This document shows, piece after piece, positions 48,188 through 62,658 of a stretch of 64,000 nucleotides of DNA. Positions within the stretch are counted from its first letter, which is position 1; each line of letters opens with the position of its first letter. Origin of the DNA: an uncultured Gammaproteobacteria bacterium (GTDB taxonomy: Bacteria; Pseudomonadota; Gammaproteobacteria; SZUA-152); the NCBI GenBank assembly GCA_913009875.1, contig CAJVYS010000003.1, forward strand, positions 13,528 through 77,527. Reading direction: 5' to 3'. A program made the translations under genes and the position numbers. The notes below the pieces were generated by a model, which searched no databases, was not told where the DNA came from, and saw only the letters and a program-made list of their open reading frames with translations.

Positions 48188-48218
48188 TTGATCGCTTGAT
48201 GGGCTTTGGATTCAACCG

Positions 48219-48404
48219 CTATGTGTTCGATGCGCTGTCGATGGCATCCAACACCCTTTGCAAATGCTCCCTTTTGGTCTTCAACTCATCACGGAATGAC
48301 TTTTTATCAGTATCCGCAATCTCATAGCTCAGGTCGGAGAGGTAGCTCTTTAAGGCTGCGCTCAGGGCTTGTTTCTCGTTTTCATCCAAGTCCAAATGAA
48401 TCAT
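48219..48404 (-). CDS. hypothetical small protein
   Basis: 61-aa ORF with balanced composition in an AT-rich spacer. Weak call. Confidence 0.25.
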   Translation of the reverse strand: MIHLDLDENEKQALSAALKSYLSDLSYEIADTDKKSFRDELKTKREHLQRVLDAIDSASNT

Positions 48405-48617
48405 TGCCGTCTCCTATTCTTTTTTTGAGATATTGATAAAAGAAACACGGATTTCAGCACTGTATATCCAGTGAACTATAAATAGCACAGGTAATGAAAG
48501 GGAACTGTAACCTAAGTAGCAGCAGGGGGGATCTATTTGTATTTAACTGTGCAGGGATGAAGGTGTCGATACGATTTGTTGTAACTTTCGAAGTCCAACC
48601 GAGGAAGGGAAAAGGTC

Positions 48618-48836
48618 ATGGTAAAAGAAAAGCCGAAGGCATCCCCCAAAAAGGGCCGCAAGGCCAAAACTCCGTCGGCAGTTTCAGTACCGCAGCAGGA
48701 TACGGTTGAGCGACAGGTAATGATCGCCGAAGCCGCCTATTTTATTGCGGAACAGCGTGGTTTTACCGCAGGCGATGAGCTTGGTGACTGGCTGCAGGCA
48801 GAACGTGAGATCCAAACCAGCTTGCAGCAACCGTAA
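48618..48836 (+). CDS. DUF2934 family small protein
   Basis: Characteristic IAEAAYFIAEQRGFTAGDELGDWLQAEREI. RBS gaggaagggaaaaggtcATG. Confidence 0.6.
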   Translation: MVKEKPKASPKKGRKAKTPSAVSVPQQDTVERQVMIAEAAYFIAEQRGFTAGDELGDWLQAEREIQTSLQQP

Positions 48837-48876
48837 AATGTTGGAGCATCGTTGGTTGCAACGCCGGGCATCAAGG

Positions 48877-49119
48877 ATGAATGTTCAGCTGTACAAACAG
48901 GGTGAGGCCGTTGGCACGGTTTGTACCTTTGACATGAATTCGCAAGGTATCGGTGTTGAGTGCGGAAAGCTGGATTTGCACGAAGGTGAAATTGTCGAGA
49001 TTGACCTGCCGGAGAATGGCATCCCCGCGGGTATGGAGTCTCATGTCCGGTGTCTGGTAATTCATACAGGGAAGACGCGTTGTGGCCTGATGCTTCTTGA
49101 TACGGCTGACGCTGACTAA
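48877..49119 (+). CDS. small PilZ-like/hypothetical protein
   Basis: 80 aa, RBS caaggATG. Weak DxSxxG-like FDMNSQGIGVE. No firm family. Confidence 0.35.
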   Translation: MNVQLYKQGEAVGTVCTFDMNSQGIGVECGKLDLHEGEIVEIDLPENGIPAGMESHVRCLVIHTGKTRCGLMLLDTADAD

Positions 49120-49454
49120 TACGTTGGCGTTGCATGTCGACGTGAATAGCCGCCACTATCATACCGAGGCACTGATTATACCTAAGTCCAACGGCGTCAC
49201 ATTTAGTCGTCTGTGAAGGTCTTTCGATTTGCTGCCGAGGTTGGTTCTTGAACCCTCACCCTAGCCCTCTCCCAGTTTTGGGAGAGGGAACAATCGGCCG
49301 TAGGGCCGATCAGTCCGGCTTTTAGCCGTAACCTGAAGCCACCGGCTTTAACCGGTGGAGTATTCACAACGGACCTGAGTTTATCCGCTCTGGGCCGGTT
49401 TAGCAGATCAGATCGATGGCGTAGGTTATAATCCACAGGGAGCGTAACTGAATC

Positions 49455-51158
49455 ATGGCATCGACTTTCGCTGACGTCTTTACTGAAATGGCGGTACTGC
49501 TGTTGCTGGCCACTGTCATCGGTGCCATCGGTGTGCGCCTGCGCCAGCCGCTGATCGTCGCCTTCATCGCGGTAGGTATCCTGGTGGGGCCATCGGTTTT
49601 CGGCTGGGTGTCGGCAAATGATCAAGTCGATCTGCTGGCCAAACTGGGTATTGCGCTGCTGTTGTTCGTGGTTGGGCTCAAACTGGATCTGCACATTATC
49701 CGTAGCATGGGGCTGGTGGCGCTGGCCACCGGACTGGGGCAGGTCTTCTTCACCTCCGTCGTCGGCTACTTTATCGCCATCGCCCTGGGGATGACCCCGG
49801 TGACCGCCCTCTATGTGGCGGTGGCGCTGACCTTCTCCAGCACCATCATCATCGTCAAGCTGCTCTCCGACAAACGCGAAGTGGACACGCTGCACGGTCG
49901 TATCGCCATCGGCTTCCTTATCGTTCAGGATATCGTGGTGGTGCTGGTGATGATTGGTCTGGCCGCGCTGGGCGAGGCCGCCGATGCAGCCGATGCAGCC
50001 GCGCTGGGCCGGGAGGCGGTCGAGGTATTGATCAAGGGCGGCCTGTTCATCGCCGCCATCGGGTTGTTGATGCGCTATGTGTTGACGCCGCTGCTACACC
50101 AACTGGCCCGTTCGCGGGAGCTGTTGGTGCTGTTCGCCATTGCCTGGGCGGTGGCGCTGGGCGCGGCGGGTGGATACCTGGGTTTCAGCAAGGAGGTGGG
50201 CGCCTTTCTCGCCGGCGTGTCGCTGGCCTCTACACCCTACCGCGAGGCCATCGGCGCGCGTTTGGTCAGTCTGCGGGATTTTTTGTTGCTGTTCTTCTTT
50301 ATCGATCTGGGCGCCGGGCTGGAGTTGGCTGTGCTCGGTGCACAGGTTGTGCCGGCCATTATCCTTTCGCTGTTCGTACTCATCGGCAACCCATTGATCG
50401 TGATGACCATCCTCGGTGCCATGGGTTATCGCAAGCGCACCGGGTTTCTGGCCGGTCTGACGGTGGCCCAGATCAGCGAATTCTCTCTGATCCTGGGGGC
50501 GTTGGGCCTGAGCCTGGGCCATATCGACGCCGACACCATGGGTCTCATCACCCTGGTGGGGTTGATCACCATCAGCACCTCCACCTACATGATCTTGTAC
50601 TCCCACCTTCTCTACGAGCGGATTTCCCCCTGGCTGGATCTGTTCGAACGTAAACAGGCGCATCGGGAAGAGGCTCAGGATCGGAATACGCAGGAGAACG
50701 GATACGATGTCATCCTGTTCGGTTTGGGGCGGTTCGGCACCAGGATTGCGCGGCAACTGCGGCTAAGAGGCTACCGGGTGCTCGGCGTGGATTTCGATCC
50801 TGATCTGGTACGCCGGCAAGAGGGGCACGGTTATGCAGTGCGCTACGGCGATGCCGAAGACCCGGAATTTCTCACCACCCTGCCGCTCAGGCAGGTGCGC
50901 TGGGTCTTGAGCAGCTTGCGAGAGATGCCCGTCAATCTCGCACTGCTGCATGGCCTGCGTGATCATGGTTACAGTGGGCGGGTGGCGGTTACCGCCCATT
51001 CCTTGCAAAATGTCGAACAGTTGAAAAGTGCAGGTGCCGACCAGGTGCTGGTCCCTTATGCCGATGCGGCCACCGAGGCCGTTGATAACCTGTTTGGTGT
51101 GAGCGGCAAGCAGCCATCCGGGGTGGGCGACAGGAACAACGCCAAAGATGTGACGTGA
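49455..51158 (+). CDS. monovalent cation:proton antiporter-2 (CPA2, Kef-type) with C-terminal RCK/TrkA-N domain
   Basis: 12-13 TM Na_H_exchanger domain followed by Rossmann-like ILFGLGRFGTRIARQL RCK domain. Confidence 0.85.
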   Translation: MASTFADVFTEMAVLLLLATVIGAIGVRLRQPLIVAFIAVGILVGPSVFGWVSANDQVDLLAKLGIALLLFVVGLKLDLHIIRSMGLVALATGLGQVFFTSVVGYFIAIALGMTPVTALYVAVALTFSSTIIIVKLLSDKREVDTLHGRIAIGFLIVQDIVVVLVMIGLAALGEAADAADAAALGREAVEVLIKGGLFIAAIGLLMRYVLTPLLHQLARSRELLVLFAIAWAVALGAAGGYLGFSKEVGAFLAGVSLASTPYREAIGARLVSLRDFLLLFFFIDLGAGLELAVLGAQVVPAIILSLFVLIGNPLIVMTILGAMGYRKRTGFLAGLTVAQISEFSLILGALGLSLGHIDADTMGLITLVGLITISTSTYMILYSHLLYERISPWLDLFERKQAHREEAQDRNTQENGYDVILFGLGRFGTRIARQLRLRGYRVLGVDFDPDLVRRQEGHGYAVRYGDAEDPEFLTTLPLRQVRWVLSSLREMPVNLALLHGLRDHGYSGRVAVTAHSLQNVEQLKSAGADQVLVPYADAATEAVDNLFGVSGKQPSGVGDRNNAKDVT

Positions 51159-51206
51159 CAATACAGATCCAATTCTTTTCGTGTGTGATAACAAGATGAT
51201 TTCAGT

Positions 51207-51337
51207 CTCTGTAGGATGCTGGTGAGCGGTAGCGAACCGCATCGTTCGCGTGTTATCAAGCGCCCGGCACGGGTGATTGTCGGCGTCACCGCTCTCGACT
51301 GATGCGGTTCGCTACCGCTCACCGGCATCCTACACAG
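51207..51337. repeat. palindromic element, family 3 (ctgtaggatgctggtgagcggtagcgaaccgcatc ... gatgcggttcgctaccgctcaccggcatcctacacag)
   Basis: ~37-bp perfect-ish arms around a ~57-bp spacer. Half-copy at 10544-10580. Confidence 0.8.
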
Positions 51338-51383
51338 AATTTTGAGAATCATTGCCCGAATTGTGTTATGGGGAGCCTGACGG

Positions 51384-51935
51384 ATGACTGTGTGCACATA
51401 TGATCGAAGACAGTCTTTAAAGTTTACACCCCGCGAATCGGTGATTATCCATTTTCGGAGCGGGGGGTTACGTGCTGTTTTGTTTACCCTGCTATGGTGG
51501 ATACTCACAGATGGTGCAACGGATTCATGGCTGGTGGGTGCGCCAGTGGTACTGTTTGCGACATTGGTCAGCGTGGCGCTACTGCCTCCTTTTTCCTGGT
51601 CCTTGATGGGGATCGTACGTTTTATCCCGTTCTTTCTCTGGTGCTCGCTACGGGGGGGCATGGACGTGGCCCGCTGCGCTCTGCACCCGCGGTTACCAAT
51701 CTCGCCGGGGCTGTTTGACTACATATTCCGACTGCCGCCGGGTCTGCCGCGGGTGTTCATGGCCAACATCGTAAGCCTGCTGCCTGGCACCTTGAGCGCG
51801 GAACTCGGTGCGAATTATCTGCAAGTGCATGTGCTCGACGAACGGAAGGATTTCTTGTCAGAACTCGAGAAGGTAGAGCAAAGAGTGGCCGCGATGTTCG
51901 GTATCTCTTTGCCTCCATCCGGAGGAGGCGAATGA
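51384..51935 (+). CDS. mrpE: Mrp-type Na+/H+ antiporter subunit E (MnhE/MbhA-like)
   Basis: MnhE family size and topology (two TM, then cytoplasmic domain). First gene of the operon after the REP. Confidence 0.65.
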   Translation: MTVCTYDRRQSLKFTPRESVIIHFRSGGLRAVLFTLLWWILTDGATDSWLVGAPVVLFATLVSVALLPPFSWSLMGIVRFIPFFLWCSLRGGMDVARCALHPRLPISPGLFDYIFRLPPGLPRVFMANIVSLLPGTLSAELGANYLQVHVLDERKDFLSELEKVEQRVAAMFGISLPPSGGGE

Positions 51936-51936
51936 A

Positions 51937-52908
51937 GTGAAGAGATTCAATAATATTCTTTGCGTGGTGACACCAGGGGCGGGATGCAAAACCGCGTTGG
52001 AACGTGCGGTCACGCTGGCTGAAAACAACCAGGCGAGCCTGACGGTTATCGACGTGACCGAGCGCGTAACTGCCGGTATTGGAATGCCGGAAGGCGGTCC
52101 GATCTCTGCAGACCTGCAGGCAGCAATCGTCAGTGCGCGTGAACAGGAACTGGACTCCCTGGTTGAGCCTTACCGCCAGCGGATCAACGTGCAAGCCAGG
52201 GTGTTGATCGGCACACCGTTTTTGGAAATTATTCGAGAGATACTGCGCAACGGGCATGATCTGGTGATCAAAACCGCTGAACGCTGGGATTGGCAGGACC
52301 GCTTATTCGGCAGCAACGATATGCACCTGTTACGTAAGTGTCCATGTCCGATGTGGATCACGCTGCCGGAGGAAAAGCCCAATTACCGCCGGATCATGGC
52401 CGCGGTCGATTTTGACCCGTGGCTGGAGGGTGCCGGGGAGAATGATCTGAACCGGCTAATCCTCGAGCTGGCGAGTTCGATGGCGCTGTCCGATTTCGCT
52501 GAACTGCATGTGGTCCATGCCTGGGAGCCCATGACGGAGACTATGATAAGAGTGTTCAGCAGCGACTTGTCCGAAGAGCAAATCGCTGCCAACGTGAATC
52601 GTGAACGGCGCGACCACCAGGCCCAGCTCGAACGGCTGACCGGCAGGTTGCGCGACTGGATCGGCACAGAGGCTTACGATTATCTGTTACCGAGGCTTTA
52701 TCTCTGCCAGGGCAGCGCACGCAAGGAAATTCCGGCGCAGGCCAGACGGATTGACGCCGATCTTGTCGTCATGGGCACCGTGGCCCGCACTGGTTTGGCC
52801 GGATTCTTTATGGGCAACACTGCGGAAACGATTCTCAACCAGATCGATTGCGCCGTGCTTGCGGTCAAGCCGCCCGGCTTTGTAACGCCGGTCACATTGG
52901 AGGGCTGA
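51937..52908 (+). CDS. tandem-domain universal stress protein (UspE-like) embedded in the mrp operon
   Basis: Two USP domains (ILCVVTPGAG... and IMAAVDFDP...), with VVMG.....G....GNTAE near the C-terminus. Starts 2 nt after the mrpE stop. Confidence 0.75.
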   Translation: MKRFNNILCVVTPGAGCKTALERAVTLAENNQASLTVIDVTERVTAGIGMPEGGPISADLQAAIVSAREQELDSLVEPYRQRINVQARVLIGTPFLEIIREILRNGHDLVIKTAERWDWQDRLFGSNDMHLLRKCPCPMWITLPEEKPNYRRIMAAVDFDPWLEGAGENDLNRLILELASSMALSDFAELHVVHAWEPMTETMIRVFSSDLSEEQIAANVNRERRDHQAQLERLTGRLRDWIGTEAYDYLLPRLYLCQGSARKEIPAQARRIDADLVVMGTVARTGLAGFFMGNTAETILNQIDCAVLAVKPPGFVTPVTLEG

Positions 52909-52925
52909 ACCCGGGTTGAACACAT

Positions 52926-53204
52926 ATGCAGACCCTTTTCCTCATATTAGCGTTGTTTCTACTGCTGAATCTTGGCGCCGGGATGTGGCGGGTACTTCGT
53001 GGTCCGACCGCCGCCGATCGCATGTTGGCCGCACAGTTATTCGGTACCACGGCGGTGGCCATACTGCTGTTGCTCGCGCAGGTCGATGGCAATGCGGCCC
53101 TGCGCGATGTGGCGTTGGTGTTTGCCCTGTTGGCCGCGGTAACGGCAGTGGCCTTTGTGCGGCGGGCCTGGCCAGACCAGGAAACGGACCATGATGCTGG
53201 GTGA
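52926..53204 (+). CDS. mrpF: Mrp antiporter subunit F (MnhF/MbhB-like)
   Basis: 92 aa, three TM. The LRGPTAADRMLA motif is characteristic of MnhF. Confidence 0.75.
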   Translation: MQTLFLILALFLLLNLGAGMWRVLRGPTAADRMLAAQLFGTTAVAILLLLAQVDGNAALRDVALVFALLAAVTAVAFVRRAWPDQETDHDAG

Positions 53205-53490
53205 TTACCTCACCGTGGTACTGCTGATCGCCGGGAGTATCTTCTTTCTGGCGGGTACCCTGGGCCTGCTGCGATTTCCGGATGTCTATACCCGTCTGCA
53301 TGCATTGACCAAGGCCGACAACGTCGGTCTGGGACTGATGGTGGCCGGGCTCGCCCTGCAGGCGGAATCCTGGACGGTGGTGGGCAAGCTGCTGATGATC
53401 TGGCTGTTGGTACTGCTGGCGGGTGCCAGTGTCGCCCACCTGGTGGCCGCAGCGGCGCGGCAAAGAGGCATCAAGCTGTGGAAACGATGA
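53191..53490 (+). CDS. mrpG: Mrp antiporter subunit G (MnhG/MbhC-like)
   Basis: DYLTVVLLIAGSIFFLAGTLGLLRFPDVYTRLHALTKADNVGLGL matches the MnhG/PhaG pattern. Overlaps mrpF. Confidence 0.8.
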   Translation: MMLGDYLTVVLLIAGSIFFLAGTLGLLRFPDVYTRLHALTKADNVGLGLMVAGLALQAESWTVVGKLLMIWLLVLLAGASVAHLVAAAARQRGIKLWKR

Positions 53491-53628
53491 CGTGCATGGA
53501 CGCACTCGCCGCTCATTGGCATCCATGCCACCACGGCAGGGCCTGCCCCATGAGCGTAGCGAGTGTTTTGGGCATTTGCACATCCCTGTGCATCATTTCG
53601 CGGGCGCATGGAGCGCAGGAGCGATGAG
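53488..53628. repeat. intercistronic palindromic repeat unit (long form), from the mrpG TGA to the ATG of the next gene
   Basis: tgacgtgcatggacgcac-[87-bp insert]-tttcgcgggcgcatggagcgcaggagcgATGAgc. Related units at 54583-54700 and 56457-56748. Confidence 0.85.
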
Positions 53629-53902
53629 CCTGTTGCAGTCTGCATTCGATGTCCTGCTGGGGTCTGCCTTGTTGTGGCTGGCTTGGCGGGCGCTGGCGAG
53701 CCCGGATTTATTCAGGGCCATTGTGCTGTTCATCGCCTTCGGGCTGTTGATGGCGCTGGCCTGGGTTCGGCTCGACGCGCCGGATATTGCCCTGGCCGAG
53801 GCGGCTATCGGCGCGGGACTGACGGGTGCCCTGCTGCTGGCAGCACTGACAAGGCTCGAGTCTAAGAGTGATACAAAATCAGCCCATGAAAAAGACCAAT
53901 AA
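53624..53902 (+). CDS. MbhD-like small membrane protein (MnhB N-terminal-domain homologue)
   Basis: APDIALAEAAIGAGLTGALLL motif typical of MbhD/MrpA-C/MnhB-N domains. ATG supplied by the repeat unit. Confidence 0.6.
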   Translation: MSLLQSAFDVLLGSALLWLAWRALASPDLFRAIVLFIAFGLLMALAWVRLDAPDIALAEAAIGAGLTGALLLAALTRLESKSDTKSAHEKDQ

Positions 53903-54599
53903 ACCGAAATCCATAACTGAAAACGGTGAAAGAGAGGCACCGTTTCGGTTGCTGCTCGCGGTGCTCCTGTCAGTTCTGGCCGTGGGGTTGGGTTATGCGG
54001 TGCTGTCCCTTCCATCGCAGGCCCCGGGTTTGAGCGACTATGTGGCGGAAAACCTCGAAACCAGCGGTGTCAGTAATCCAGTCACTGCGGTGCTGCTTAA
54101 CTTCCGTGGTTACGATACCTTGCTGGAACTGGGGGTGCTGTTGCTGGCCTTGCTTGGGGTCTGGTCACTCGGTGCTGTACCGAAACGCCACGAGTCATCC
54201 CCTGGGCCGGTGCTGGATATGCTGTCGCGCCTGCTGGTTCCTTTACTGATCCTGGTTGCCGGCTATCTATTATGGGTCGGCGCCCATGCGCCGGGCGGTG
54301 CCTTTCAGGCCGGTTCGCTGCTGGCGGCGGCGGGGGTGTTGCTGTTGCTGACGGGGTGGCGACTCGGCACAGGGTTTTCCGGCCTGCTACTGCGCATTAC
54401 CCTGGTAGCCGGCCTGGGGGTCTTTGTGGTGGTGGGTGTTGTGTTGATACTGGCGGGCGGGCGCCTGCTGGAATACCCCCTGTCATTCGCGGGTGCGCTG
54501 ATACTGCTGATCGAGGCGGCAGCGACTGTGTCCATCGGCGTGACCCTGGCTGCCCTGTTCCTGGGTGGCCGCCCAGAGGCAGGAGCGCAGGAGCGATGA
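53886..54599 (+). CDS. mrpB: Mrp antiporter subunit B (MnhB/MbhE-like)
   Basis: MnhB domain ...NPVTAVLLNFRGYDTLLELGVLLLALLG... Start ambiguous (53868 or 53886) and overlaps the upstream ORF by 17-35 nt in another frame. Confidence 0.65.
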   Translation: MKKTNKPKSITENGEREAPFRLLLAVLLSVLAVGLGYAVLSLPSQAPGLSDYVAENLETSGVSNPVTAVLLNFRGYDTLLELGVLLLALLGVWSLGAVPKRHESSPGPVLDMLSRLLVPLLILVAGYLLWVGAHAPGGAFQAGSLLAAAGVLLLLTGWRLGTGFSGLLLRITLVAGLGVFVVVGVVLILAGGRLLEYPLSFAGALILLIEAAATVSIGVTLAALFLGGRPEAGAQER

Positions 54600-54700
54600 C
54601 GTGCATGGATGCACTAAGTTCGCGGGCGCATGGAGCGCAGGAGCGATGACGTGCATGGATGCACTAAGTTCGCGGGCGCATGGAGCGCAGGAGCGATGAG
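54583..54700. repeat. intercistronic repeat: partial unit plus two tandem 50-bp short units
   Basis: ggagcgcaggagcgatgac + 2 x gtgcatggatgcactaagttcgcgggcgcatggagcgcaggagcgatga(c/g). It encodes the last residues of mrpB (GAQER*) and the ATG of mrpC. Confidence 0.85.
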
Positions 54701-55004
54701 CCCTGCTTTCCTCTATGCACTGGTGGGGGTGGGTCTGTTCACTCTGGGTCTGTACGCCTTGATCGTCCACACGCATTTACTGCGTAAGATCCTGGCCATC
54801 AATGTGATGGCCAGCGGGGTGTTCCTGGTGTTGGTGGCACTGGCGGTCCGTACCCAGGGGGCAGCGCCGGATCCAGTGCCGCACGCCATGGTGATTACCG
54901 GCATCGTGGTTGCCGTATCGGCCACCGCCCTGGCGTTGGCGCTGATGCTGCGGGTACAGGCGGCAACAGGCCGGGCTGAGCTTGCCGAAGAGCCGTTGGA
55001 ATAA
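54696..55004 (+). CDS. mrpC: Mrp antiporter subunit C (NuoK-like, MnhC/MbhG)
   Basis: Three TM, 102 aa. LYALIVHTHLLRKILAINVMASGVFL matches the MnhC/NuoK pattern. Confidence 0.8.
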   Translation: MSPAFLYALVGVGLFTLGLYALIVHTHLLRKILAINVMASGVFLVLVALAVRTQGAAPDPVPHAMVITGIVVAVSATALALALMLRVQAATGRAELAEEPLE

Positions 55005-55010
55005 CACTCG

Positions 55011-56459
55011 ATGTCTATGTGGATACCAGGTGTCCACTGGGGGGTGATGGCTATTGTGTTGCCGCTGGCCGGGGCCATAAGCTGTTTCTTGTGGCCGCGA
55101 CGCACCGTCCCGCTGGGTCTGGTTACTGCGCTGGGTATTGTCGCTTGCGTGGCCGGACTGGGCTGGCGGGTGGTGGAGCAGGGTGCGCAACGCTATGCGG
55201 TCGGAGGCTGGGGTGCGCCATTGGGTATCGACCTCTATGCAGATGGTTTGAGTCTGCTGATGCTAATGGTGGCGGCGGTGGTGGGGCTGGGCATCAGCGT
55301 CTATTCCAGCGGCTATTTTAAACCAGACAGGGCGACGCATTTTTGGCCATTGTGGCTGTTTCTGTGGGCCGCGCTGAATGCTTTGTTTCTGTCCGCGGAT
55401 ATCTTCAATCTTTATGTCACCCTGGAACTGCTGGGGCTGGCGGCGGTGGCGTTGGTCGCGTTAGCCGGGGGGGCGGATGCCTTGACCGGGGCCATGCGCT
55501 ACTTGTTGGTCAGTCTGCTGGGTTCGTTGTTCTATCTGCTGGGTGTCGCGCTGCTCTATCACAGTTTTGGCAGCGTCGATATCGCGATATTGGCAGAGCG
55601 GGTGGAACCGTCCCCCGCAGTGTGGGCAGCGATGGGATTGATGAGTGCCGGTTTGCTGCTCAAGACCGCGTTGTTTCCGCTGCACTTCTGGTTGCCGCCA
55701 GCCCATGCCAGTGCCCCGGCGCCAGTGAGCGCGCTGTTGTCAGCACTGGTGGTGAAGGCATCGTTTTATATTCTGCTGCGTCTGTGGCTGGAGATTTTCC
55801 CGCTGACCAACGCCGTGCTTGGTCAGTTGCTGGGTCTGCTCGGCGCGGCCGCTGTGCTCTGGGGCGGGCTTCAGGCGTTACGCCAGACGCGGCTCAAAAT
55901 GTTGATCGCCTATTCGACCGTGGCGCAACTGGGTTATCTGTTTCTGGCTTTTCCGCTGGCGAACATCATCGGTTGGACGGGTGCGCTCTATATGCTGTTA
56001 TCCCACGCCGCGGCCAAGACGGCCATGTTCATGGCGGCCGGCAACATCCTGTATTTCGGCGGACATGATCGCATTGCGGATCTTGATCGTGTCGTGCAGC
56101 GTCTACCCCTGACGATTACCGCCTTTGCCTTGGCGGGTATCAGCATCATGGGCCTGCCGCCCAGTGGCGGATTTATCGCCAAATGGCTGCTGCTGGAGGC
56201 CGCCATCCGTTCCGATCAGTGGTGGTGGGGGATCATCCTGATCCTCGGTGGACTGCTGTCTGCCGCCTGGGTCTTTAAAGTGGTCGGTTATGCCTTTACC
56301 CAGTCCGAGGTACCCCACCAAGCCAGAGCGGTACCTGCCACCATGGAGTGGACCGCGCTGGTCATGGCCGTGGTCGCCATCCTGCTGGGCCTGTTTGCCC
56401 CCTGGCCGCTGGCATTAATGGAAATCGGTTTACCCTTTAGCGGGGAAGATCCCGGATGA
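55011..56459 (+). CDS. mrpD: Mrp antiporter subunit D (NuoN/NuoM-like antiporter-type subunit)
   Basis: ~14 TM proton-pumping module: TLELLGLAAVALVAL, HAAAKTAMFMAAGN and WLPPAHASAPAPVSALL motifs. Confidence 0.8.
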   Translation: MSMWIPGVHWGVMAIVLPLAGAISCFLWPRRTVPLGLVTALGIVACVAGLGWRVVEQGAQRYAVGGWGAPLGIDLYADGLSLLMLMVAAVVGLGISVYSSGYFKPDRATHFWPLWLFLWAALNALFLSADIFNLYVTLELLGLAAVALVALAGGADALTGAMRYLLVSLLGSLFYLLGVALLYHSFGSVDIAILAERVEPSPAVWAAMGLMSAGLLLKTALFPLHFWLPPAHASAPAPVSALLSALVVKASFYILLRLWLEIFPLTNAVLGQLLGLLGAAAVLWGGLQALRQTRLKMLIAYSTVAQLGYLFLAFPLANIIGWTGALYMLLSHAAAKTAMFMAAGNILYFGGHDRIADLDRVVQRLPLTITAFALAGISIMGLPPSGGFIAKWLLLEAAIRSDQWWWGIILILGGLLSAAWVFKVVGYAFTQSEVPHQARAVPATMEWTALVMAVVAILLGLFAPWPLALMEIGLPFSGEDPG

Positions 56460-56748
56460 CGTGCATGGATGCACTAATTTCGCGGGCGCATGGAGCGCAG
56501 GAGCGATGACGTGCATGGATGCACTCGCCGCTCATTGGCATCCATGCCACCACGGCAGGGCCTGCCCCATGAGCGTAGCGAGTGTTTTGGGCATTTGCAC
56601 ATCCCTGTGCATCATTTCGCGGGCGCATGGAGCGCAGGAGCGATGACGTGCATGGATGCACTCGCCGCTCATTGGCATCCATGCCACCACGGCATTTGCA
56701 CATCCCTGTGCATCATTTCGCGGGCGCATGGAGCGCAGGAGCGATGAG
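56457..56748. repeat. intercistronic repeat array: short unit, long unit, and long unit with a 36-bp internal deletion
   Basis: 56461-56510 (50 bp), 56511-56647 (137 bp), 56648-56748 (101 bp). Array starts at the mrpD TGA and ends ...gagcgATGAgc (start of the next gene). Confidence 0.85.
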
Positions 56749-58240
56749 CTGGAATGCCGCGCTGCCGCTACTCGTTCTCGCCAGCTCCCTGTTACCGGGA
56801 CTGGTGATTTTCTTTCTGCCAGAGGAGCGTGTTGCAACCCGTACCACCCTGAACCTGACCGGTGCAGTACTCAAACTGGTGTTGGTCGGGGTGATGATCT
56901 GGGGCGTTTTTCACGGCCACCATTATGAGACCCGTCTGCCCCTGTTACCCGGGCTGGATCTGGTACTGCGTGCCGACCCCCTGTCGATGCTGTTTGTGGT
57001 GCTTTCCAGTGTCCTGTGGCTTGTGACGACCGTTTATGCCATCGGCTACCTGGAGGGCTCGCCTAACCGCAGCCGCTTTTTCGGATTTTTCAGCCTGTGT
57101 GTGACCGCAACGGTCGGTGTGGCGTTGGCCGGCAACCTGATTACCTTTTTGCTGTTTTACGAGCTGCTGACCCTGGCCACCTATCCGCTGATCGTGCACC
57201 GTGGTACCGACGAGGCGCGGCGCGCAGGTCGTACCTACCTGAACTATACGGTTGCAGGCGGCGCCCTGTTGCTGATCGGCACGGTATGGCTGTACACCCT
57301 CACCGGCACCCTGGAGTTCACAGCACGTGGTTTTTTATCCAGCCTGGATGAAACACACTACGGGGTTCTGGTCGTCATATTTGTACTCTTGATCGCTGGT
57401 CTGGGTGTAAAGGCCGCACTGATTCCGCTGCATGGCTGGCTGCCGCAGGCCATGGTGGCGCCCGCACCCGTGAGCGCATTATTGCATGCGGTGGCGGTGG
57501 TGAAGGCGGGTGCCTTCGGTATCGTGCGCGTGGTCCACGATGTCTATGGCATCCAGTTTGCCGCCAGTCTGGGAGTGACATTGCCACTGGCAATAGTGGC
57601 GGCGGCGACCATTATTTATGGTTCGATGCGAGCATTGTTCCAGGATGATCTGAAACGCCGGCTGGCGTTCTCCACGGTCAGCCAGGTTGCCTATATTGTC
57701 CTCGGCATCGCCATCGCCGGCCCGATCGCGACCATCGGCGGCCTGGTCCATCTGGTGCACCAGGGCGTGATGAAAATCACCCTGTTTTTCTGCGCCGGCA
57801 ATCTCGCCGAGACTTTAGGAATTCACAAAGTCAGCGAAATGAACGGGGTCGGACGGCGCATGCCCTGGACCATGGTCGCCTTTACTATCGCTGTCTTTGG
57901 CATGATTGGTGCGCCACCCTTGGCCGGTTTTGTCAGTAAATGGTATCTGGGACTGGGGGCATTGGACGCCGGGCAGAGCTGGGTGATTATTATCCTGGCT
58001 GGTAGTAGCCTGCTCAACGCGGCGTATTTCCTGCCTATTCTGTACGCCGCCTGGTTCAAGGCACCTCCCGATACCTGGCCCGCCGAGCGCTCCTTCGGGC
58101 GGCGTGAGACGGCCTGGACGCTACTGGCGCCCCCGGTGGTGACCGCTTTGCTGACACTGGCTGCGGGGTTGCTGGCATCGGCACCGTTTAGTCCGTTGCA
58201 ATGGGCGCGTTTCATCACGACTCTGGGATACGCATCATGA
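56744..58240 (+). CDS. second NuoL/M/N-family antiporter-like subunit (MrpD/MrpA-like paralogue)
   Basis: GNLITFLLFYELLTLATYPLIVHRGTDEARRAGRTYL, WLPQAMVAPAPVSALLHAVAVVKAGAFG and HQGVMKITLFFCAGN motifs. ATG supplied by the repeat. Confidence 0.8.
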   Translation: MSWNAALPLLVLASSLLPGLVIFFLPEERVATRTTLNLTGAVLKLVLVGVMIWGVFHGHHYETRLPLLPGLDLVLRADPLSMLFVVLSSVLWLVTTVYAIGYLEGSPNRSRFFGFFSLCVTATVGVALAGNLITFLLFYELLTLATYPLIVHRGTDEARRAGRTYLNYTVAGGALLLIGTVWLYTLTGTLEFTARGFLSSLDETHYGVLVVIFVLLIAGLGVKAALIPLHGWLPQAMVAPAPVSALLHAVAVVKAGAFGIVRVVHDVYGIQFAASLGVTLPLAIVAAATIIYGSMRALFQDDLKRRLAFSTVSQVAYIVLGIAIAGPIATIGGLVHLVHQGVMKITLFFCAGNLAETLGIHKVSEMNGVGRRMPWTMVAFTIAVFGMIGAPPLAGFVSKWYLGLGALDAGQSWVIIILAGSSLLNAAYFLPILYAAWFKAPPDTWPAERSFGRRETAWTLLAPPVVTALLTLAAGLLASAPFSPLQWARFITTLGYAS

Positions 58241-59574
58241 ATACCACACTGAGTGCTATCCTTCTGCTGTCGGTACCTGGATGCCCGTTGTTACTCGCAT
58301 TTCCTGCACTTCGCTCACGCCTTCCTGATCCCTGGTCTTGCCATATCGCCCTTTTGCCCGCGGTTATCCTGTTGGCTGTGCCGACGGTCTTTTCTGTTGA
58401 CTTGCCTTGGCTGCTGTTCGGTACCGGACTGGGTATAGGCGAGGCATCCCGATGGTTGTTAGCGATGTCAGTGGTACTATGGGCTGCCGCCGCGACCCTT
58501 TTACATGCACCCACCGGCCAATCTGCGGACAATCGGCTCACGACCTTTTTTCTGTTGACCCTGGCGGGTAATCTGGGTGCGATTCTGGCGACGGATCTGG
58601 TCGGATTTTTCGCCTTTTCGACCCTGATGGGTTATGGCTTCTATGGCCTGCTGGTTAATGGTGGAAATAAGGCAGCGCGGCGGGCCGGACGCGTCTATCT
58701 CGGTCTCCTTATCCTGGCGGATCTGGCCCTGTTCGAGGCCTTGTTGATCGCGGCTGCAACGACCGGGAATCTGGGCTTTGGAATAGTGCGCCAGGCAGTG
58801 GCCCAGTCAGCTTCCCCAAGTTTGTATCTGTCGATGGTTCTCGTCGGCTTTGCCCTCAAGGCAGGCATCTGGCCGTTGCACTTCTGGTTACTGCCGGCCT
58901 TTCGTTCGGCCCGGCCGGCGGTCGCCCTGCTGCTGGGCGCTGTTCCCGTTGCTATCGGACTGCTTGGAGTCGTGCACTGGTTGCCCCTTGGCGAAATCAC
59001 CTCGCCTGACCTGGGGTTGATCATCCAGGGGCTGGGGGTGGCCGCCATGCTCTATGCCATGGTAGCCGGGCTGATGCGTAGGCAGCTAAAAATGCTACCC
59101 GCCTATGCCGCCATCGTCGCCACGGGATTGTTCGTCACCGTCTTGGGGGCGGGACTGGCCGATCCTGCTGTGTGGCACCGGTACGGAAATCTGGCGCATT
59201 TCTTCATTGTTTCTCTGGGGTTTGGCTTGGCGGCCCTGACCGTCGGCATCGGGTGGCTGGAGGCGAGGAACCCTTATTCTGCTGCGCCTGTAAAGCAAGT
59301 CGACGATTCGACCCCGTGGTTTGAGCGCTGGCCTGACGCAGTGGTGCGTTGGGCCGCGCAGATGGGGTTCGATACCTTACCCCGGTTGCGTGCATCGTGG
59401 CTGGCTAAAGTGGGCCGTCTCTGGCGAGTCCGTGCATGGCAACGAACCTTGGACGGTAGTGAGCGTTTTCTGCAACACTGGACCTTTGCGATCACCCTGT
59501 TTCTCTTGCTGGGAATTGTCGTGGCGCTTGTCGGCGCATCATTTTGGGACAAATCATTGTGGAGCGTTTTTTGA
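58237..59574 (+). CDS. third NuoL/M/N-family antiporter-like subunit (divergent)
   Basis: ATDLVGFFAFSTLMGYGFYGLLVNGGNKAARRAGRVYL and WPLHFWLLPAFRSARPAVALLLGA motifs. ATGA overlap with the previous gene. Confidence 0.7.
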   Translation: MNTTLSAILLLSVPGCPLLLAFPALRSRLPDPWSCHIALLPAVILLAVPTVFSVDLPWLLFGTGLGIGEASRWLLAMSVVLWAAAATLLHAPTGQSADNRLTTFFLLTLAGNLGAILATDLVGFFAFSTLMGYGFYGLLVNGGNKAARRAGRVYLGLLILADLALFEALLIAAATTGNLGFGIVRQAVAQSASPSLYLSMVLVGFALKAGIWPLHFWLLPAFRSARPAVALLLGAVPVAIGLLGVVHWLPLGEITSPDLGLIIQGLGVAAMLYAMVAGLMRRQLKMLPAYAAIVATGLFVTVLGAGLADPAVWHRYGNLAHFFIVSLGFGLAALTVGIGWLEARNPYSAAPVKQVDDSTPWFERWPDAVVRWAAQMGFDTLPRLRASWLAKVGRLWRVRAWQRTLDGSERFLQHWTFAITLFLLLGIVVALVGASFWDKSLWSVF

Positions 59575-59607
59575 TTAACACCAACGCTCGGTTCGCAAGA
59601 GCGACAT

Positions 59608-59976
59608 TCAGAGATAATGGGAGATAACGGGATGAATTTTCAAACACAAAGAAGCGCTGCGAAAGTCGCGCAGACGATCCAATGCAGTCGCGTGAGTGAG
59701 CTCACTCATCCGTTTAATGTTGCGGAGTTTCCATTGGATTGCAGGCAATTCCTGGATATGGTCGAAGGGCATCAGGCTCCAGTCGGGCTCGCCTTGCTTA
59801 ATCGACAGCAGGAACTTGCGCTCATTTTCTGTTAGCGCTGTGCGTACCCACGAAAATAGTTGCTTTCGGGCGGCTTCGAGTTCGTCCAGCTCGATTGCAT
59901 GGGCTGTCATGCCCGCAAAGTGGTGAGTGTAGAGCTGTTCAATGGTTTTGGCATTCGGAGCCAACAGTTCTGCCAT
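59608..59976 (-). CDS. hypothetical protein at the edge of an AT-rich islet
   Basis: 122-aa ORF with lower GC than the flanks. No family recognised. Confidence 0.35.
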   Translation of the reverse strand: MAELLAPNAKTIEQLYTHHFAGMTAHAIELDELEAARKQLFSWVRTALTENERKFLLSIKQGEPDWSLMPFDHIQELPAIQWKLRNIKRMSELTHATALDRLRDFRSASLCLKIHPVISHYL

Positions 59977-60054
59977 GGGGCGGTGATGTCCAGTAAGGTA
60001 AACAGCGAATCAGCAAATCCACCTGGGCTCGATAGCGTTCGTTGACAGGCATGA

Positions 60055-60942
60055 TGGCTCCTTATTGGTGATTCGTGTCTGCTACGACCAGGATATATTT
60101 TAAATATCCATGGTACCGTAATCAAAAATCGTCTCTATGAAACGGAGAGACAAAGCAAAGCATACGGCACGTTACGAACAATTATCTTCATCGGAAAACA
60201 AGGCAAACAGATCCCTGTAATAAGCACAAACCTGACATTAAGCGCCGCTGAAATTGTTGCTCGGTTACAGAAGAGATGGGTAGAAGAGAACGGATTCAAA
60301 TATATGGATGAACATTACAATATTGATCTATTGACCACCTATGAAACAGAAGAGGCCCCCGACAAAATAATGAGCAGGCCTAACCCAGATCGTAAAGCCG
60401 CGAACAGAGCCATAGCAGAAAAGAAAACGGAGCTCAAAGAATTAAAAGAAAAATATGCCACGAAACTAAATGAAACAAAAGATAAAGACGAGCTGACCAT
60501 CGCCGCGTTTGAAGAGCAAGAAAAAGAGCTAAAATTGGAAATAAAAACTGCCGAGATGGAGCTGGGGTTACTGGAGTTAAAGCGAAAAGAGATCCCCAGT
60601 AAGGTAGAAAGCAACCTGAAAGAGGAAAGCGTTATCAGCTCTCAAAAACGAAGACTGTTCATCAACTTGGTAAAGACCATGAACTACAATTGTGAAAAAT
60701 GGCTGCAGCTCATTTTTTGTCAATTTCACCCGAAAGCGGATGAAACCTTAAGCCTGATCCGGCATCTCTTGACCCAGCCAGGTCGCATTCGCCAGCGGGG
60801 CCAGATCCTCGAAGTTGAGTTGGAAAGGCTCGATAGTGGGGTACAGGCCAACACGCTAGATAAAGTGTTGGAAAAGTTCAGAGAAGACAATCACTTAAAT
60901 CTTCCTGATGGTCGGAAACTGGTGATTTGGCAAGCGCTGTGA
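60055..60942 (+). pseudogene. transposase remnant: C-terminal DDE-region fragment with no start codon (open frame from 60055; first ATG only at 60304)
   Basis: ...GKQIPVISTNLTLSAAEIVARLQKRWVEENGFKYMDEH... carries the Y-x2-RW-x-VE-x2-FK signature of IS4/IS5-type DDE transposases. The upstream part is missing. AT-rich context. Confidence 0.5.
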
Positions 60943-60954
60943 CAATTGGGAAAC

Positions 60955-61134
60955 TTAAGATTTCGATACAAGTCTCGTTTGGAGTTCTGAACTGGCAATA
61001 TCCTGGAGCACCGCCCTGGCTTCGCCGTGTTGTGTGATCACTATGGTACGTTGCCCCTCACTGACGTTTCGCAGAACCTCGGCGGTGTGGCTTTTCAAAT
61101 AGCTGATGGGTTTGACCGATTCACTCAGCTTCAT
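60955..61134 (-). CDS. Phd/YefM-family antitoxin-like small protein (59 aa, possibly C-terminally truncated; no cognate toxin downstream)
   Basis: MKLSESVKPISYLKSHTAEVLRNVSEGQRTIVITQHGEARAVLQDIASSELQTRLVSKS matches the Phd/YefM N-terminal domain pattern. Below the 60-aa track threshold. Confidence 0.55.
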   Translation of the reverse strand: MKLSESVKPISYLKSHTAEVLRNVSEGQRTIVITQHGEARAVLQDIASSELQTRLVSKS

Positions 61135-61370
61135 GGTTTGTGTTTCCTTATCGGTTTAATTGGTGCTAAATATAGTCCATATTTGGTTCCAGTGTAAAGG
61201 TGGCCGGGTATGACCTCTGCCGAGGTGGAGGCTTTGGATAGTGGCGATTAGCAACAAATTCTGAGCATGGTATCTCTCATGGTATTATCACTGATCACAA
61301 CAATTAACCTATTGATAGTAATGGATGATTTTGGCCCGTTTACAATCGAGTGGGAGTAGGGTGAGCGGCC

Positions 61371-61886
61371 TTGGAAAGCCAAACGATTTCCGCCAGTCAG
61401 AATTTCACTAACGGCACGCCGCGTGACCAGCAGTGGATGCGCCATGCCATGGCGCTGGCGCAACGCGCCGAGGCCTCGGGCGAGGTGCCTGTGGGTGCCG
61501 TTATCGTGCGCGACAACAGCCTGCTGGCCGAAGGCTGGAATCAGCCCATCGGCGCTCATGACCCGACCGCCCACGCCGAGATCATGGCCCTGCGTGCGGC
61601 GGGGCTGACCGCTGCGAATTATCGTCTCACCGGTACCACCTTGTTCGTGACCCTGGAGCCCTGTGTGATGTGCGCCGGCGCCATTGTTCATGCACGAGTC
61701 GCGCGGGTTGTCTATGCGGCCACGGATCCGCGTGCCGGTGCTGCCGGGAGTGTCTTTTCCCTGTTAGAGAATACACCGCTTAATCATCAAGTGAGCGTAC
61801 AAGGCGGGGTGCTGGCCGAAGAATGCAGTGACATGCTGCGGCAGTTTTTTCGTGCACGGCGCAACATGCCGGGGGAGAGGGGATGA
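61371..61886 (+). CDS. tadA: tRNA-specific adenosine deaminase TadA
   Basis: CMP/dCMP deaminase zinc motifs HAEIMAL and PCVMCAGA. TTG start as tracked. A shorter start at MRHAMALAQRA is possible. Confidence 0.85.
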   Translation: MESQTISASQNFTNGTPRDQQWMRHAMALAQRAEASGEVPVGAVIVRDNSLLAEGWNQPIGAHDPTAHAEIMALRAAGLTAANYRLTGTTLFVTLEPCVMCAGAIVHARVARVVYAATDPRAGAAGSVFSLLENTPLNHQVSVQGGVLAEECSDMLRQFFRARRNMPGERG

Positions 61887-62047
61887 TTAACTGTGCGTCG
61901 TGGTTTTCTGCTGGTTTCTCCTGCTGCCATCGCTGCTGATATCTGGAAGGTTGTAAAAATGCGGGTGCCGAGACATGGGTTGACTTCTTACGTCTACTTA
62001 TTTCTGGCCTGGAAGTTGAATTAATGGGTGAGTAGCGGTGGTATGTG

Positions 62048-62076
62048 TTGAGCGCGAAATCAATACCGCGTATCCT
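62048..62076 (+). promoter_or_regulatory. candidate sigma-70 promoter for the tRNA (-35 TTGAGC, 17-nt spacer, -10 TATCCT, GC-rich discriminator)
   Basis: Read directly upstream of the tRNA. Spacing to the mature 5' end (~13 nt) is consistent with a processed leader. Confidence 0.35.
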
Positions 62077-62089
62077 ATGCGCCTTGTTC

Positions 62090-62179
62090 GGAGAGGTGCC
62101 AGAGAGGCCGAATGGGCTTGACTCGAAATCAAGTGAACGCGCGAGCGTTCCGAGGGTTCGAATCCCTCCCTCTCCGCCA
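62090..62179 (+). tRNA. tRNA-Ser (anticodon CGA), encoded CCA end
   Basis: Acceptor stem ggagagg/cctctcc plus gcca. Anticodon stem-loop cttga-ctCGAaa-tcaag. Long variable arm (gtgaacgcgcgagcgttc) typical of class II tRNA. T-arm ggttcgaatcc. Confidence 0.85.
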
Positions 62180-62190
62180 AACAGTGAAAC

Positions 62191-62218
62191 AGGCTGCCCG
62201 CTAGGTAGCCTTTTTTAT
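62191..62218 (+). terminator. rho-independent terminator after the tRNA
   Basis: aggctgcc-cgcta-ggtagcct stem (one G-U pair) followed by tttttatt. Confidence 0.7.
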
Positions 62219-62658
62219 TGTTTCGGAGAAGGATGCCATGATGAGAGCCCGGAGTTCGACGCGCACGAAGTGTGCACAGGGAAAGCGCCATAGCATCGCG
62301 GAGGGACTCCGAAGGGAGGCGCCAGTGGTGCGAAATTCCTGCCTTTTTCGCTCGCCGGCACTGGGCATGAACCCTCCGCTTATCGAAGACCATTACTCTC
62401 CTTTGGCTGCCGATATGATTTTTGTTCATATCTCATACATGCGGTTAGATATGGCCATAATCGATGCGCCATTTCTGACACTTGGTAGGTCTTTCTCGAG
62501 AAATTCTTCACAGGATTATGGCCTTAATTATTTAATTTTTCTGTTATTTTATCTGGCATGAAATGCTACTATTTGTGGGCATATTCCACATTTTGATGTT
62601 TACGAGCTCTCTTTACTTTTTTGATGTTAATTTTAATAAGATAACAAGGAGTTTTCCT

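Follow-up and report, generated by a model that had tools for sequence, protein, structure and literature searches.

A putative stand-alone Group 3 Mrp antiporter operon with a degenerate third antiporter-like subunit and mobile repeats at three gene junctions

Gene content and surroundings of the cluster

The window, a stretch of 64,000 nt from an uncultured gammaproteobacterium, contains at positions 51384-59574 a cluster of genes located on one strand, which, based on ORF and Pfam analyses, encode MrpE, a tandem universal stress protein (USP), MrpF, MrpG, an MbhD-like protein, a fusion of MbhE and MnhB, MrpC and three PF00361 proteins, here designated D1, D2 and D3. The first gene, mrpE (51384..51935, + strand), encodes a protein of 183 amino acids (PF01899 MNHE, E 5.5e-24), and its orthologues are also the first gene of the cluster in the related loci L002, L003, L005 and L006. 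The genes mrpF (52926..53204, +; 92 aa; PF04066 MrpF_PhaF) and mrpG (53191..53490, +; 99 aa from the ATG at 53191; PF03334 (MnhG)) overlap by 14 nt, as they do in the gene table of L003. They are followed by the genes for the MbhD-like subunit (53624..53902, +; 92 aa; PF13244, E 4.6e-19), which carries the motif APDIALAEAAIGAGL, the MbsE-like MbhE+MnhB fusion (53886..54599, +, with an alternative GTG start at 53868; 237 aa; PF20501 and PF04039) and the NuoK-like MrpC (54696..55004, +; 102 aa; PF00420 (Oxidored_q2)); an identical 102-aa mrpC gene was called in L001. The cluster ends with the genes for D1, an MrpD/MbhH-type subunit (55011..56459, +; 482 aa; PF00361 and PF00662), D2, an MrpA-core/NuoL-type subunit (56744..58240, +; 498 aa; PF00361 and PF00662), and D3, a degenerate antiporter-like subunit (58237..59574, +; 445 aa; partial PF00361 match of 62.6 bits), the ATGA start of which overlaps the D2 stop codon. 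ORF coordinates and Pfam searches thus agree with the ORFs, domains, subunit order and protein lengths of 482, 498 and 445 amino acids given in the initial annotation.

A Pfam search with every ORF revealed that this one co-oriented cluster contains the complete set of Mrp domain types (E, F, G, B-domain, C and D/A-type), and no further Mrp or Nuo paralogue was found in the whole window. MrpG exceeds the TIGR01300 cutoff of 63.1 with 73.2 bits; the NCBIfam equivalog cutoffs are unmet by all other proteins of the cluster, and the Mrp subunits are thus divergent. A fused MrpA is lacking, as had been claimed before: PF13244 and PF04039 are located on separate small ORFs, the D genes are only of MrpD size, and none of them encodes the C-terminal extension of MrpA. 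Neither the full-length MrpA of Group 1 (~800 aa) nor the MrpA-MrpB fusion of Group 2 is present, and the relatives are equally split and do not show the Group 2 layout.

The same nine genes are found on related marine gammaproteobacterial contigs. The nine-gene order is complete in L002, L003/L004 and L005, and L006-L010, L131 and L132 contain a partial cluster or fragmented gene calls, every part of which fits this order. The UspE-like tandem USP (51937..52908, +; 323 aa; two PF00582 Usp domains) is encoded between mrpE and mrpF; its GTG start at 51937 is separated from the mrpE stop at 51935 by one nucleotide, not by two as previously stated. The protein reaches 155.7 bits with the UspE model NF008380, which is below the cutoff of 227. 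Since the same E/F position is filled in L006 (84% aa identity), L009 (89%) and L131, the gene is not unique to the source genome; it is missing between E and F in L002, L003, L005 and L010. The tandem USP, which occurs in one subclade, probably binds nucleotides and regulates the Mrp complex.

Upstream of the cluster, an H+-PPase (46142-48187, - strand) and a KefB-type CPA2 protein with a TrkA_N domain (49455-51158) are encoded, and downstream of D3 lies an islet with a GC content of 0.42-0.45, which contains a weak transposase fragment (60304-60942). Both flanks therefore look as initially annotated, with regard to the KefB-type antiporter and H+-pyrophosphatase on one side and the low-GC islet with its transposase remnant on the other. 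The ORFs downstream of D3 in the window encode the transposase fragment, a deaminase and MscS, so that the mrp cluster is surrounded by several ion-homeostasis genes, namely those for the KefB-type CPA2 protein, the H+-PPase and MscS. A DabA (DUF2309) partner is absent among the scanned flanking ORFs and in the Pfam lists of the related loci.

Structural relatives of the subunits and the charge relay

The best solved relatives of the MbhD-like protein are MbhD (6cfw_D) and MbsD (6u8y_D), with which it shares the conserved motif APDxAxAEAAxGAG, and it is equivalent to TM17-19 of MrpA. The B fusion is most similar to the MbsE fusion (6u8y_E); its N-terminal part matches residues 719-794 of MrpA (MbhE / MrpA TM20-21) and its C-terminal part matches MbhF/MrpB. 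The genes for both proteins overlap by 17 nt from ATG 53886 or by 35 nt from GTG 53868, as noted before, and either translational coupling or a frameshift had been considered. An identical 17-nt overlap is found in L002, L003 and L005, and this conservation points to translational coupling and argues against a frameshift.

D1 gave the best PDB matches with MbhH (6cfw_H), MbsH (6u8y_H) and MrpD (7qru_D). Its residues E139, K218, K249, H332, K336 and K391 align with E137, K219, K250, H333, K337 and K392 of MrpD, and the charge relay is thus complete. NdhF, NuoL and the Dietzia MrpA rank high among the PDB matches of D2, the relay residues of which are E140, K223, H248 together with K254, H336/H339/K344 and K399. 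Conserved residues of MrpA are E140, K223 and H248 (PMC9568556), and judged from its sequence, D2 bears this MrpA/NuoL signature; it has neither the lateral helix nor the C-terminal domain. D1 and D2 therefore retain the full set of relay residues reported for MrpD and MrpA (PMC9568556), with the TM5 Glu, TM7 Lys, TM8 Lys/His, TM11 His/Lys and TM12 Lys all present, and the relay is lost in D3.

In D3, T129, A239 and S326 replace the Glu, Lys and Lys of the relay and K208 is retained. These losses are common to all 59 aligned family members, which show a mean column identity of 64%, with individual identities down to 56%, and in which tail residues, including E409 and W415, are invariant. D3 consists of TM1-11, an amphipathic tail with a hydrophobic moment (muH) of up to 0.7 and a terminal TM helix. 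The AF2 model has a pLDDT of 75.6, which falls below 50 for residues 348-413 of the tail; the best Foldseek match is MrpD (6z16_D), with a TM-score of 0.64 over 356 columns, and no relative of the C-terminal tail could be detected among solved chains. D3 thus lacks the relay residues as well as the half-channel of TM12-14 and most likely has the structural role of an end-cap. With its amphipathic tail and terminal TM helix, it may replace the lateral helix that is normally provided by MrpA, NuoL or MbhI, a role that is conjecture, given the low pLDDT of the tail and the lack of a solved relative.

Repeats at three gene junctions

Copies of a single repeat family, overlooked in the initial annotation, occupy the three longer intergenic gaps of the cluster (53491-53623, 54600-54695 and 56460-56743). 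In total, the G|MbhD, B|C and D1|D2 junctions hold 525 nt of two-hairpin repeats of 50, 101 or 137 nt. These inserts begin directly 3' of a TGA stop codon and end in GGAG..GGAGCGATGA, and each insert recreates TGA, GGAG and ATG. The G|MbhD junction contains one composite repeat of 137 nt (53491..53627, +), which directly follows the mrpG TGA and provides the MbhD start with its terminal ATGA. Two tandem 50-nt repeats with scores of 66.2 and 50.8 bits are present at the B|C junction (54600..54699, +), the last ATGA being the mrpC start, and an array of 50, 137 and 101 nt occupies the D1|D2 junction (56460..56747, +), the last ATGA of which is the D2 start and which includes a nested inverted copy (56662-56715, -). 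The last 18 nt of the B fusion gene are identical to the 3' end sequence of the repeat.

Empty sites are found among the relatives: the G|MbhD and B|C junctions are empty in L002, L003 and L005, and the D1|D2 junction is empty in L005 and contains one 50-nt copy in L003 and a copy of ~100 nt in L002. The two B|C copies are also present in the independent contig L001. A comparison of empty and filled sites among relatives shows GATGA on both sides of the inserts. The hairpins are supported by covariation, and copies can be tandem and nested; thermodynamic z scores of the junction structures between -0.65 and -1.95 give weak support. Scans for promoter-like sites (5 vs 3.8 expected) and terminator-like sites (17 vs 9.8 expected, mostly inside genes) were uninformative.

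Members of the wider repeat family occur in large numbers in metagenomes, and Rfam 15 contains no match to them; searching plasmids with the consensus of the family yielded a single weak match. The AUGGAU loops are AYGGAY-like, which made the TwoAYGGAY motif a candidate. Cmscan revealed no match to TwoAYGGAY (RF01731) with E <=1 in window positions 51000-60000 and 12 metagenome loci, or with E <=10 in window positions 54570-54720, and this identity was rejected. IS91-family (Y2_Tnp) genes, the ends of which were considered as an origin of the repeat, are interrupted by it in 20-odd metagenome loci at many positions, often in frame, and an IS6-like gene in L039 is affected in the same way. Since the repeat interrupts them, both types of genes are targets and not the mobilising gene. 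IS200/IS605-type palindrome-associated or REP-type mobile repeats were considered as well; a cognate HUH (Y1) transposase would be expected for them, and none was identified. The repeat does not act as a general leader donating a ribosome binding site either, as it lies directly upstream of an ORF in only 5 of the 96 assessable copies; 59 are otherwise intergenic and 32 are inside open frames.

Candidate relatives of the junction repeats are REP/BIME-type elements and other miniature palindromic repeats, which would likewise have short hairpin units, tandem and nested inverted copies, a copy number that varies between relatives and assembly breaks at copies. In contrast to REP/BIME-type elements, the junction repeats have a core sequence that turns up in many metagenomes, their local subfamily is confined to the ATGA stop/start overlaps within a single operon, where translation signals are rebuilt, and no associated transposase was identified. 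Since the copies regenerate the stop codon, the Shine-Dalgarno sequence and the start codon, the operon would survive their insertion; a mobile repeat that brings along its own stop, ribosome binding site and start can be tolerated even in an essential-type operon. We speculate, as a rather doubtful joint reading, that the three inserts belong to an undescribed, metagenome-wide family of ~50-nt two-hairpin mobile elements with GGA-containing loops, strong compensatory covariation and no Rfam 15 match, and that a subfamily specialised on GATGA overlaps spread into the mrp operon in one clade of marine Gammaproteobacteria; the GGA hairpins might bring CsrA-like post-transcriptional control of the distal cistrons, and D3 might supply the lateral helix of the split MrpA in trans. 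A practical consequence of the junction repeats is that short-read assemblies break at them and too many ORFs are called.

Classification of the system and competing explanations

Group 3 Mrp systems are defined by the lack of mrpA and the presence of one or more mrpD genes (PMC8415708; PMC5703873). The stand-alone Mrp of Pyrococcus furiosus (mrpEFGBB'CD) is functional (PMC8415708), Na+/H+ antiport was demonstrated for the functional cyanobacterial system mrpCD1D2EFGAB of Aphanothece halophytica (PMC5703873), and the Group 3 cluster of 'Ca. Nitrospira alkalitolerans' contains two extra NuoM/L-like genes after mrpD (PMC7784846). Like the P. furiosus Mrp, a Na+-coupled antiporter in pH homeostasis, the cluster described here has the order E-F-G-(MbhD/E/F equivalents)-C-D and neither mrpA nor an energy-input module. 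However, P. furiosus possesses a single MrpD, fused MbhD and MbhE (MrpB) and a separate MbhF-like MrpB', whereas the present cluster has a gene of its own for MbhD, an MbsE-like fusion of MbhE with the MrpB part and three antiporter-like subunits, and its host is a bacterium. The Aphanothece and Nitrospira clusters also have several mrpD-type genes, encode short 'A'/'B' proteins where a fused MrpA would otherwise be found and follow the same order of genes in cyclic terms, but start at C instead of E. Group 1 Mrp complexes (Bacillus pseudofirmus / Anoxybacillus flavithermus; 7qru, 6z16) have homologous subunits, and the same relay residues are found in D1 (MrpD) and D2 (MrpA core); their MrpA, however, is one protein of ~800 aa that includes a lateral helix and a C-terminal domain, their gene order is ABCDEFG and a third antiporter-like subunit is lacking.

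The locus is probably an operon that is intact and co-transcribed and encodes a stand-alone Group 3 Mrp (CPA3) cation/proton antiporter without a redox module. This is judged from the domains present, the conservation of residues and of the gene order, and the finding that relatives lack a partner module. We infer transport direction and subunit arrangement as follows: MrpE, MrpF, MrpG, the MbhD-like protein, the MbsE-like MbhE+MrpB fusion and MrpC would form a sodium-side module, and D1 (MrpD type) and D2 (14-helix MrpA/NuoL core), both with the full Glu/Lys/His relay, a proton-side module. By analogy with the solved Group 1 Mrp complexes, the membrane potential would drive proton entry via D2 and D1, which would be coupled electrostatically to the expulsion of Na+ (or K+) near MrpC, the MbhD-like protein and D1. 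The ion specificity cannot be read from the sequence; a Thermomicrobium Mrp is a Ca2+/H+ antiporter. Points against this reading are the divergence of the subunits and the fact that the three repeat inserts could disturb the expression of distal cistrons.

The gene order had initially been regarded as that of the archaeal Mbh/Mbx/MBS membrane arm and as different from the canonical bacterial mrpABCDEFG order. The likeness to the membrane arm is supported, with 6cfw_D, 6u8y_D and 6u8y_E as the best matches, and the layout, being that of Group 3 Mrp, falls within the known bacterial classes. With the MBS membrane arm (mbsABCDEGHH'; 6u8y), the cluster shares the gene order, the separate MbsD, the MbsE-type fusion and an MrpD-like subunit followed by an MrpA-like one. 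MBS, however, continues with MbsM/J/K/L/N and has the lateral helix on MbsH', whereas here D2 lacks this helix, the degenerate D3 comes next and adjacent catalytic genes are absent. These likenesses, including the best matches to MbsD and MbsE, and the low-GC islet with its transposase fragment would fit a remnant of an MBH/MBS/Mbx-type complex, whose MbhM/J/K/L/N-like genes after D3 were lost when the AT-rich islet inserted. Such a loss, considered possible in the initial annotation, is very improbable and already contradicted by the relatives: in other lineages, the D3 proteins of which are 59-80% identical, D3 is followed by tig-clpP-clpX-lon (L003/L004), an integrase-type gene and ATP synthase genes (L131) or unrelated genes such as Ysc84-like and other ones and an RND transporter (L005 and L132), and none of these four relatives, the ones readable there, carries a hydrogenase- or Nuo-like module at this position, so that nothing suggests a lost module. 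NuoH/MbhM-like or MbhJ/K/L/N (NuoB/C/D/I-like) genes are found neither downstream in the window, as had been noted, nor in the gene tables of these four relatives, no gene table contains a NuoH/MbhM-like gene, and the family is large, with 444 proteins at E up to 1e-5.

It is improbable that the membrane module works with a redox or other energy-input module whose genes lie in another part of the genome. Three antiporter-like subunits equal the number in complex I, and the analysis covers the window, with the remainder of the genome outside its view; the connecting NuoH/MbhM-like subunit, however, is missing in the cluster and in related loci, and stand-alone Group 3 Mrp systems without an input module are documented. 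It is very improbable that the operon is decaying, with the repeats splitting coupled cistrons and D3 being a pseudogene-like relic. The 525 nt of inserts and the loss of relay residues could be read in this way, but all ORFs are intact and of full length compared to their orthologues, translation signals are recreated by each insert, the insert-carrying relatives L006-L009 keep intact genes with 80-95% aa identity, and D3 is conserved as described above.

With the assignment to Group 3, an apparently odd 'Mbh-like' bacterial locus is refiled as a regular stand-alone Mrp of an already described type, which is frequently found among uncultured marine Gammaproteobacteria of the sulfur-cycle type. 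What is less usual about it is the conserved, catalytically degenerate D3 and the mobile repeats located exactly at three gene junctions. The natural 'split MrpA', with the core, TM17-19 and TM20-21+MrpB on separate genes, and the conserved pseudo-antiporter subunit D3 could aid structural work on the contributions of the distal subunit and of the lateral helix within the superfamily of complex I.

Subunits of the mrp operon

The genes that the initial annotation had listed for 51384-59574 are present on the + strand, and each of them carries a Pfam domain: MNHE (51384-51935), two Usp domains in the gene for a tandem universal stress protein (USP; 51937-52908), MrpF (52926-53204), MnhG (53191-53490), MbhD/PF13244 in a protein of 92 amino acids (53624-53902), an MbhE+MnhB fusion (53886-54599) and Oxidored_q2 in MrpC (54696-55004). 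The operon closes with three PF00361 antiporter-like subunits, D1 (482 amino acids, 55011-56459), D2 (498 amino acids, 56744-58240) and D3 (445 amino acids, 58237-59574), the last of which yields a partial match only (62.6 bits). The neighbours described as an ion-homeostasis region could also be recovered, namely an H+-PPase and a KefB-type CPA2 protein with a TrkA_N domain at 46142-51158, and no further Mrp or Nuo paralogue was found elsewhere within the window. D3 is followed by a low-GC islet (59600-61370) with a GC content of 0.42-0.45 compared to about 0.60 elsewhere; an ORF in this islet (60304-60942) resembles a weak transposase fragment, which matches Transposase_29 at positions 348-505 only and below the gathering score. 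Beyond the islet, genes for a TadA-like deaminase and an MscS channel are located at 61371-63492.

The 92-amino acid protein has MbhD (6cfw_D) and MbsD (6u8y_D) as top matches and has the motif APDxAxAEAAxGAG in common with them. The top match of the 237-amino acid MbhE+MnhB protein is MbsE (6u8y_E); its N-terminal part could be aligned to residues 719-794 of MrpA and the C-terminal one to MbhF/MrpB, and MbhE-MrpB-type fusions of this kind have been described (PMC8415708). D1 is nearest to MbhH, MbsH and MrpD and retains E139, K218, K249, H332, K336 and K391, which correspond in the same order to the MrpD residues E137, K219, K250, H333, K337 and K392, whose roles in the relay were taken from PMC9568556. 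D2 scores against NdhF, NuoL and MrpA almost as well as against MrpD. Its residues E140, K223 and H248 agree in identity and numbering with conserved residues of MrpA, and K254, H336, H339, K344 and K399 are additional relay-type residues. Because of these matches and the MrpA-type residues, D2 is predicted to be an MrpA/NuoL-type core of 14 helices, which lacks the lateral helix and the C-terminal domain.

In D3, the glutamate of TM5 and the lysines of TM8 and TM11 are replaced by T129, A239 and S326, leaving the TM7 lysine K208 as the sole relay residue, and no segment could be aligned to TM12-14. This pattern is conserved among 59 family members with identities down to 56%: acidic residues never occur at the TM5 position and basic ones never at the TM8 or TM11 position, and the K208 position is always occupied by K or R. 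An AlphaFold2 model of D3 (pLDDT 75.6) could be superposed on MrpD, MbsH', MrpA and NuoL, with a TM-score of ~0.6 across about 356-370 columns. The model is of low confidence at residues 348-413, which are rich in Arg and Trp and contain the highest hydrophobic moment of the protein (0.7); this tail is followed by a terminal TM helix (413-436). E409 and W415 are invariant in the 59 family members, and no relatives of the tail were found among solved chains. The tail might act as a lateral clamp.

A probable stand-alone Group 3 Mrp system

A search with D3 retrieved 444 homologues at E-values up to 1e-5, of which the majority come from marine gammaproteobacterial MAGs, and contigs that carry such homologues have the gene order E, F, G, MbhD, MbhE+MnhB, C, D1, D2, D3, as in the window. 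It had been suggested that a catalytic module was lost downstream of D3. In the related contigs, D3 is followed by tig-clpP-clpX-lon (L003 and L004), by unrelated genes (L005 and L132) or by an integrase-type gene and ATP synthase genes (L131). No NuoH/MbhM-like or NuoB/C/D/I-like gene is present across these D3-bearing loci, and the suggestion of a lost module is therefore unsupported. The overlap between the MbhD-like gene and the B gene, which amounts to 17 nt from the ATG at 53886 or 35 nt from the GTG at 53868, had been considered as either translational coupling or a frameshift. The same 17 nt are found in L002, L003 and L005, which indicates a conserved coupling arrangement rather than a frameshift. 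Between E and F, the USP gene is also present in L006, L009 and L131 but missing in L002, L003, L005 and L010; it marks a subclade. The adjacency of KefB and mrp is kept in L006, where a KefB-type gene is located upstream, whereas other relatives carry genes for a P-type cation ATPase and a glyoxalase-family protein in its place.

By definition, Group 3 Mrp systems lack mrpA and contain only mrpD, at times in several copies (PMC8415708; PMC5703873). The stand-alone mrpEFGBB'CD cluster of P. furiosus uses Na+ and serves pH homeostasis (PMC8415708), mrpCD1D2EFGAB of Aphanothece halophytica encodes a functional Na+/H+ antiporter (PMC5703873), and the Group 3 cluster of 'Ca. Nitrospira alkalitolerans' contains two more NuoM/L-like genes past mrpD (PMC7784846). 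The window locus belongs to this already described group and appears to be complete. What is special to it is that a complete MrpD-type subunit and an MrpA-core-type subunit are combined with a third one that is conserved but degenerate; this degenerate D3 and the junction-specific repeats give the cluster its added interest. Starting from the observed domain content, the relay residues and the missing partner module, we infer the remaining features of the mechanism. Most probably, the complex works as a secondary antiporter along the lines proposed for Group 1 complexes: protons would enter through D2 and D1, and a lateral chain of charged residues would couple proton entry to the release of Na+ (or K+) in the vicinity of D1, MrpC and the MbhD-like protein. 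D3 would have a structural and the USP a regulatory role.

Repeat inserts at three gene junctions

The initial gene-level reading was correct, but it passed over three long gaps, which are all filled by one repeat family. The insert at the G|MbhD junction spans 137 nt (53491-53627), the one at the B|C junction consists of two 50-nt units (54600-54699), and at the D1|D2 junction a 50-nt unit is joined by a 137-nt and a 101-nt unit (56460-56747). Each insert opens with CGTGCATGGATGCACT immediately 3' of the upstream TGA and closes with GCATGGAGCGCAGGAGCGATGA, whose ATG serves the following gene as start codon; an insert ending in GGAG..GGAGCGATGA thereby recreates a ribosome binding site and a start codon. 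The 101-nt and 137-nt variants enclose a nested copy in inverse orientation just past the first hairpin, as revealed by a covariance model; these inverse copies lie on the - strand at 56662-56715, 53508-53538 and 56527-56557. The 137-nt variant carries an extra 36-nt insert. The final 18 nt of the MnhB-type gene (54582-54599) are identical to the 3' end of the repeat, and the protein ends in ...AGAQER* instead of ...TGARR* or ...TGPQR* as in relatives. This gene seems to have taken up a piece of a repeat copy as coding sequence.

Junction repeats were also seen in L002, L003 and L006-L010, and their fillings vary: L003 has a single 50-nt unit, L002 a stretch of about 100 nt, and L006-L009 have between one and three units. 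Empty sites exist at orthologous junctions, for example GCCGGATGAACTGG between D1 and D2 in L005. An independent short-read contig of 1976 nt from a marine metagenome (L001; ENA DRR093004) encodes an identical D1 protein and matches the junction sequences of the window. Since this contig begins and ends within repeats, it shows that the junction repeats break assemblies. When 185,579 species genomes were scanned for the 3' end of the repeat subfamily, hits were confined to the mrp operons of five MAGs and lay at the same three junctions, and a covariance model built from family copies matched the window at the three mrp junctions only.

The wider repeat family

Using the 5' hairpin as an exact 19-mer, at least 120 metagenome loci (L011-L130) could be identified, and among the matches listed, almost all are unrelated to mrp. 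The family unit comprises roughly 50 nt and two hairpins with GGA loops, with the consensus GACGUGCAUGGAYGCAC-UAAU-G-YCGCG-RG-NNNN-A(U)GGAU-NNNN-ARGA-GCGRC. Covariation among 60 distinct copies extends to 9/9 pairs of helices 2 and 3: doubly changed cells number 109 compared to 30.5 in shuffles, a value attained by 0/500 shuffles, and pairing holds for 92.7% of cells compared to 14-49% when partners are slid. G-U pairs outnumber A-C pairs (32 vs 13) on the strand shown. Rfam 15 contains no family matching the repeat. Members of the family form tandem arrays, lie at contig ends and are present as in-frame 51-nt copies inside IS91- and IS6-type transposase genes. The repeat is best read as a miniature mobile element, of which a local subfamily would target GATGA overlaps. 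Its three GGA motifs might serve as CsrA-type binding sites, which is speculation on our part.

An inverted repeat just upstream of mrpE (51206-51338; 43-nt arms, 91% complementary, 47-nt spacer) probably represents a miniature repeat family other than that of the junction repeats. It is missing at the syntenic locus L006, and one of its arms is found again at 10544-10566.
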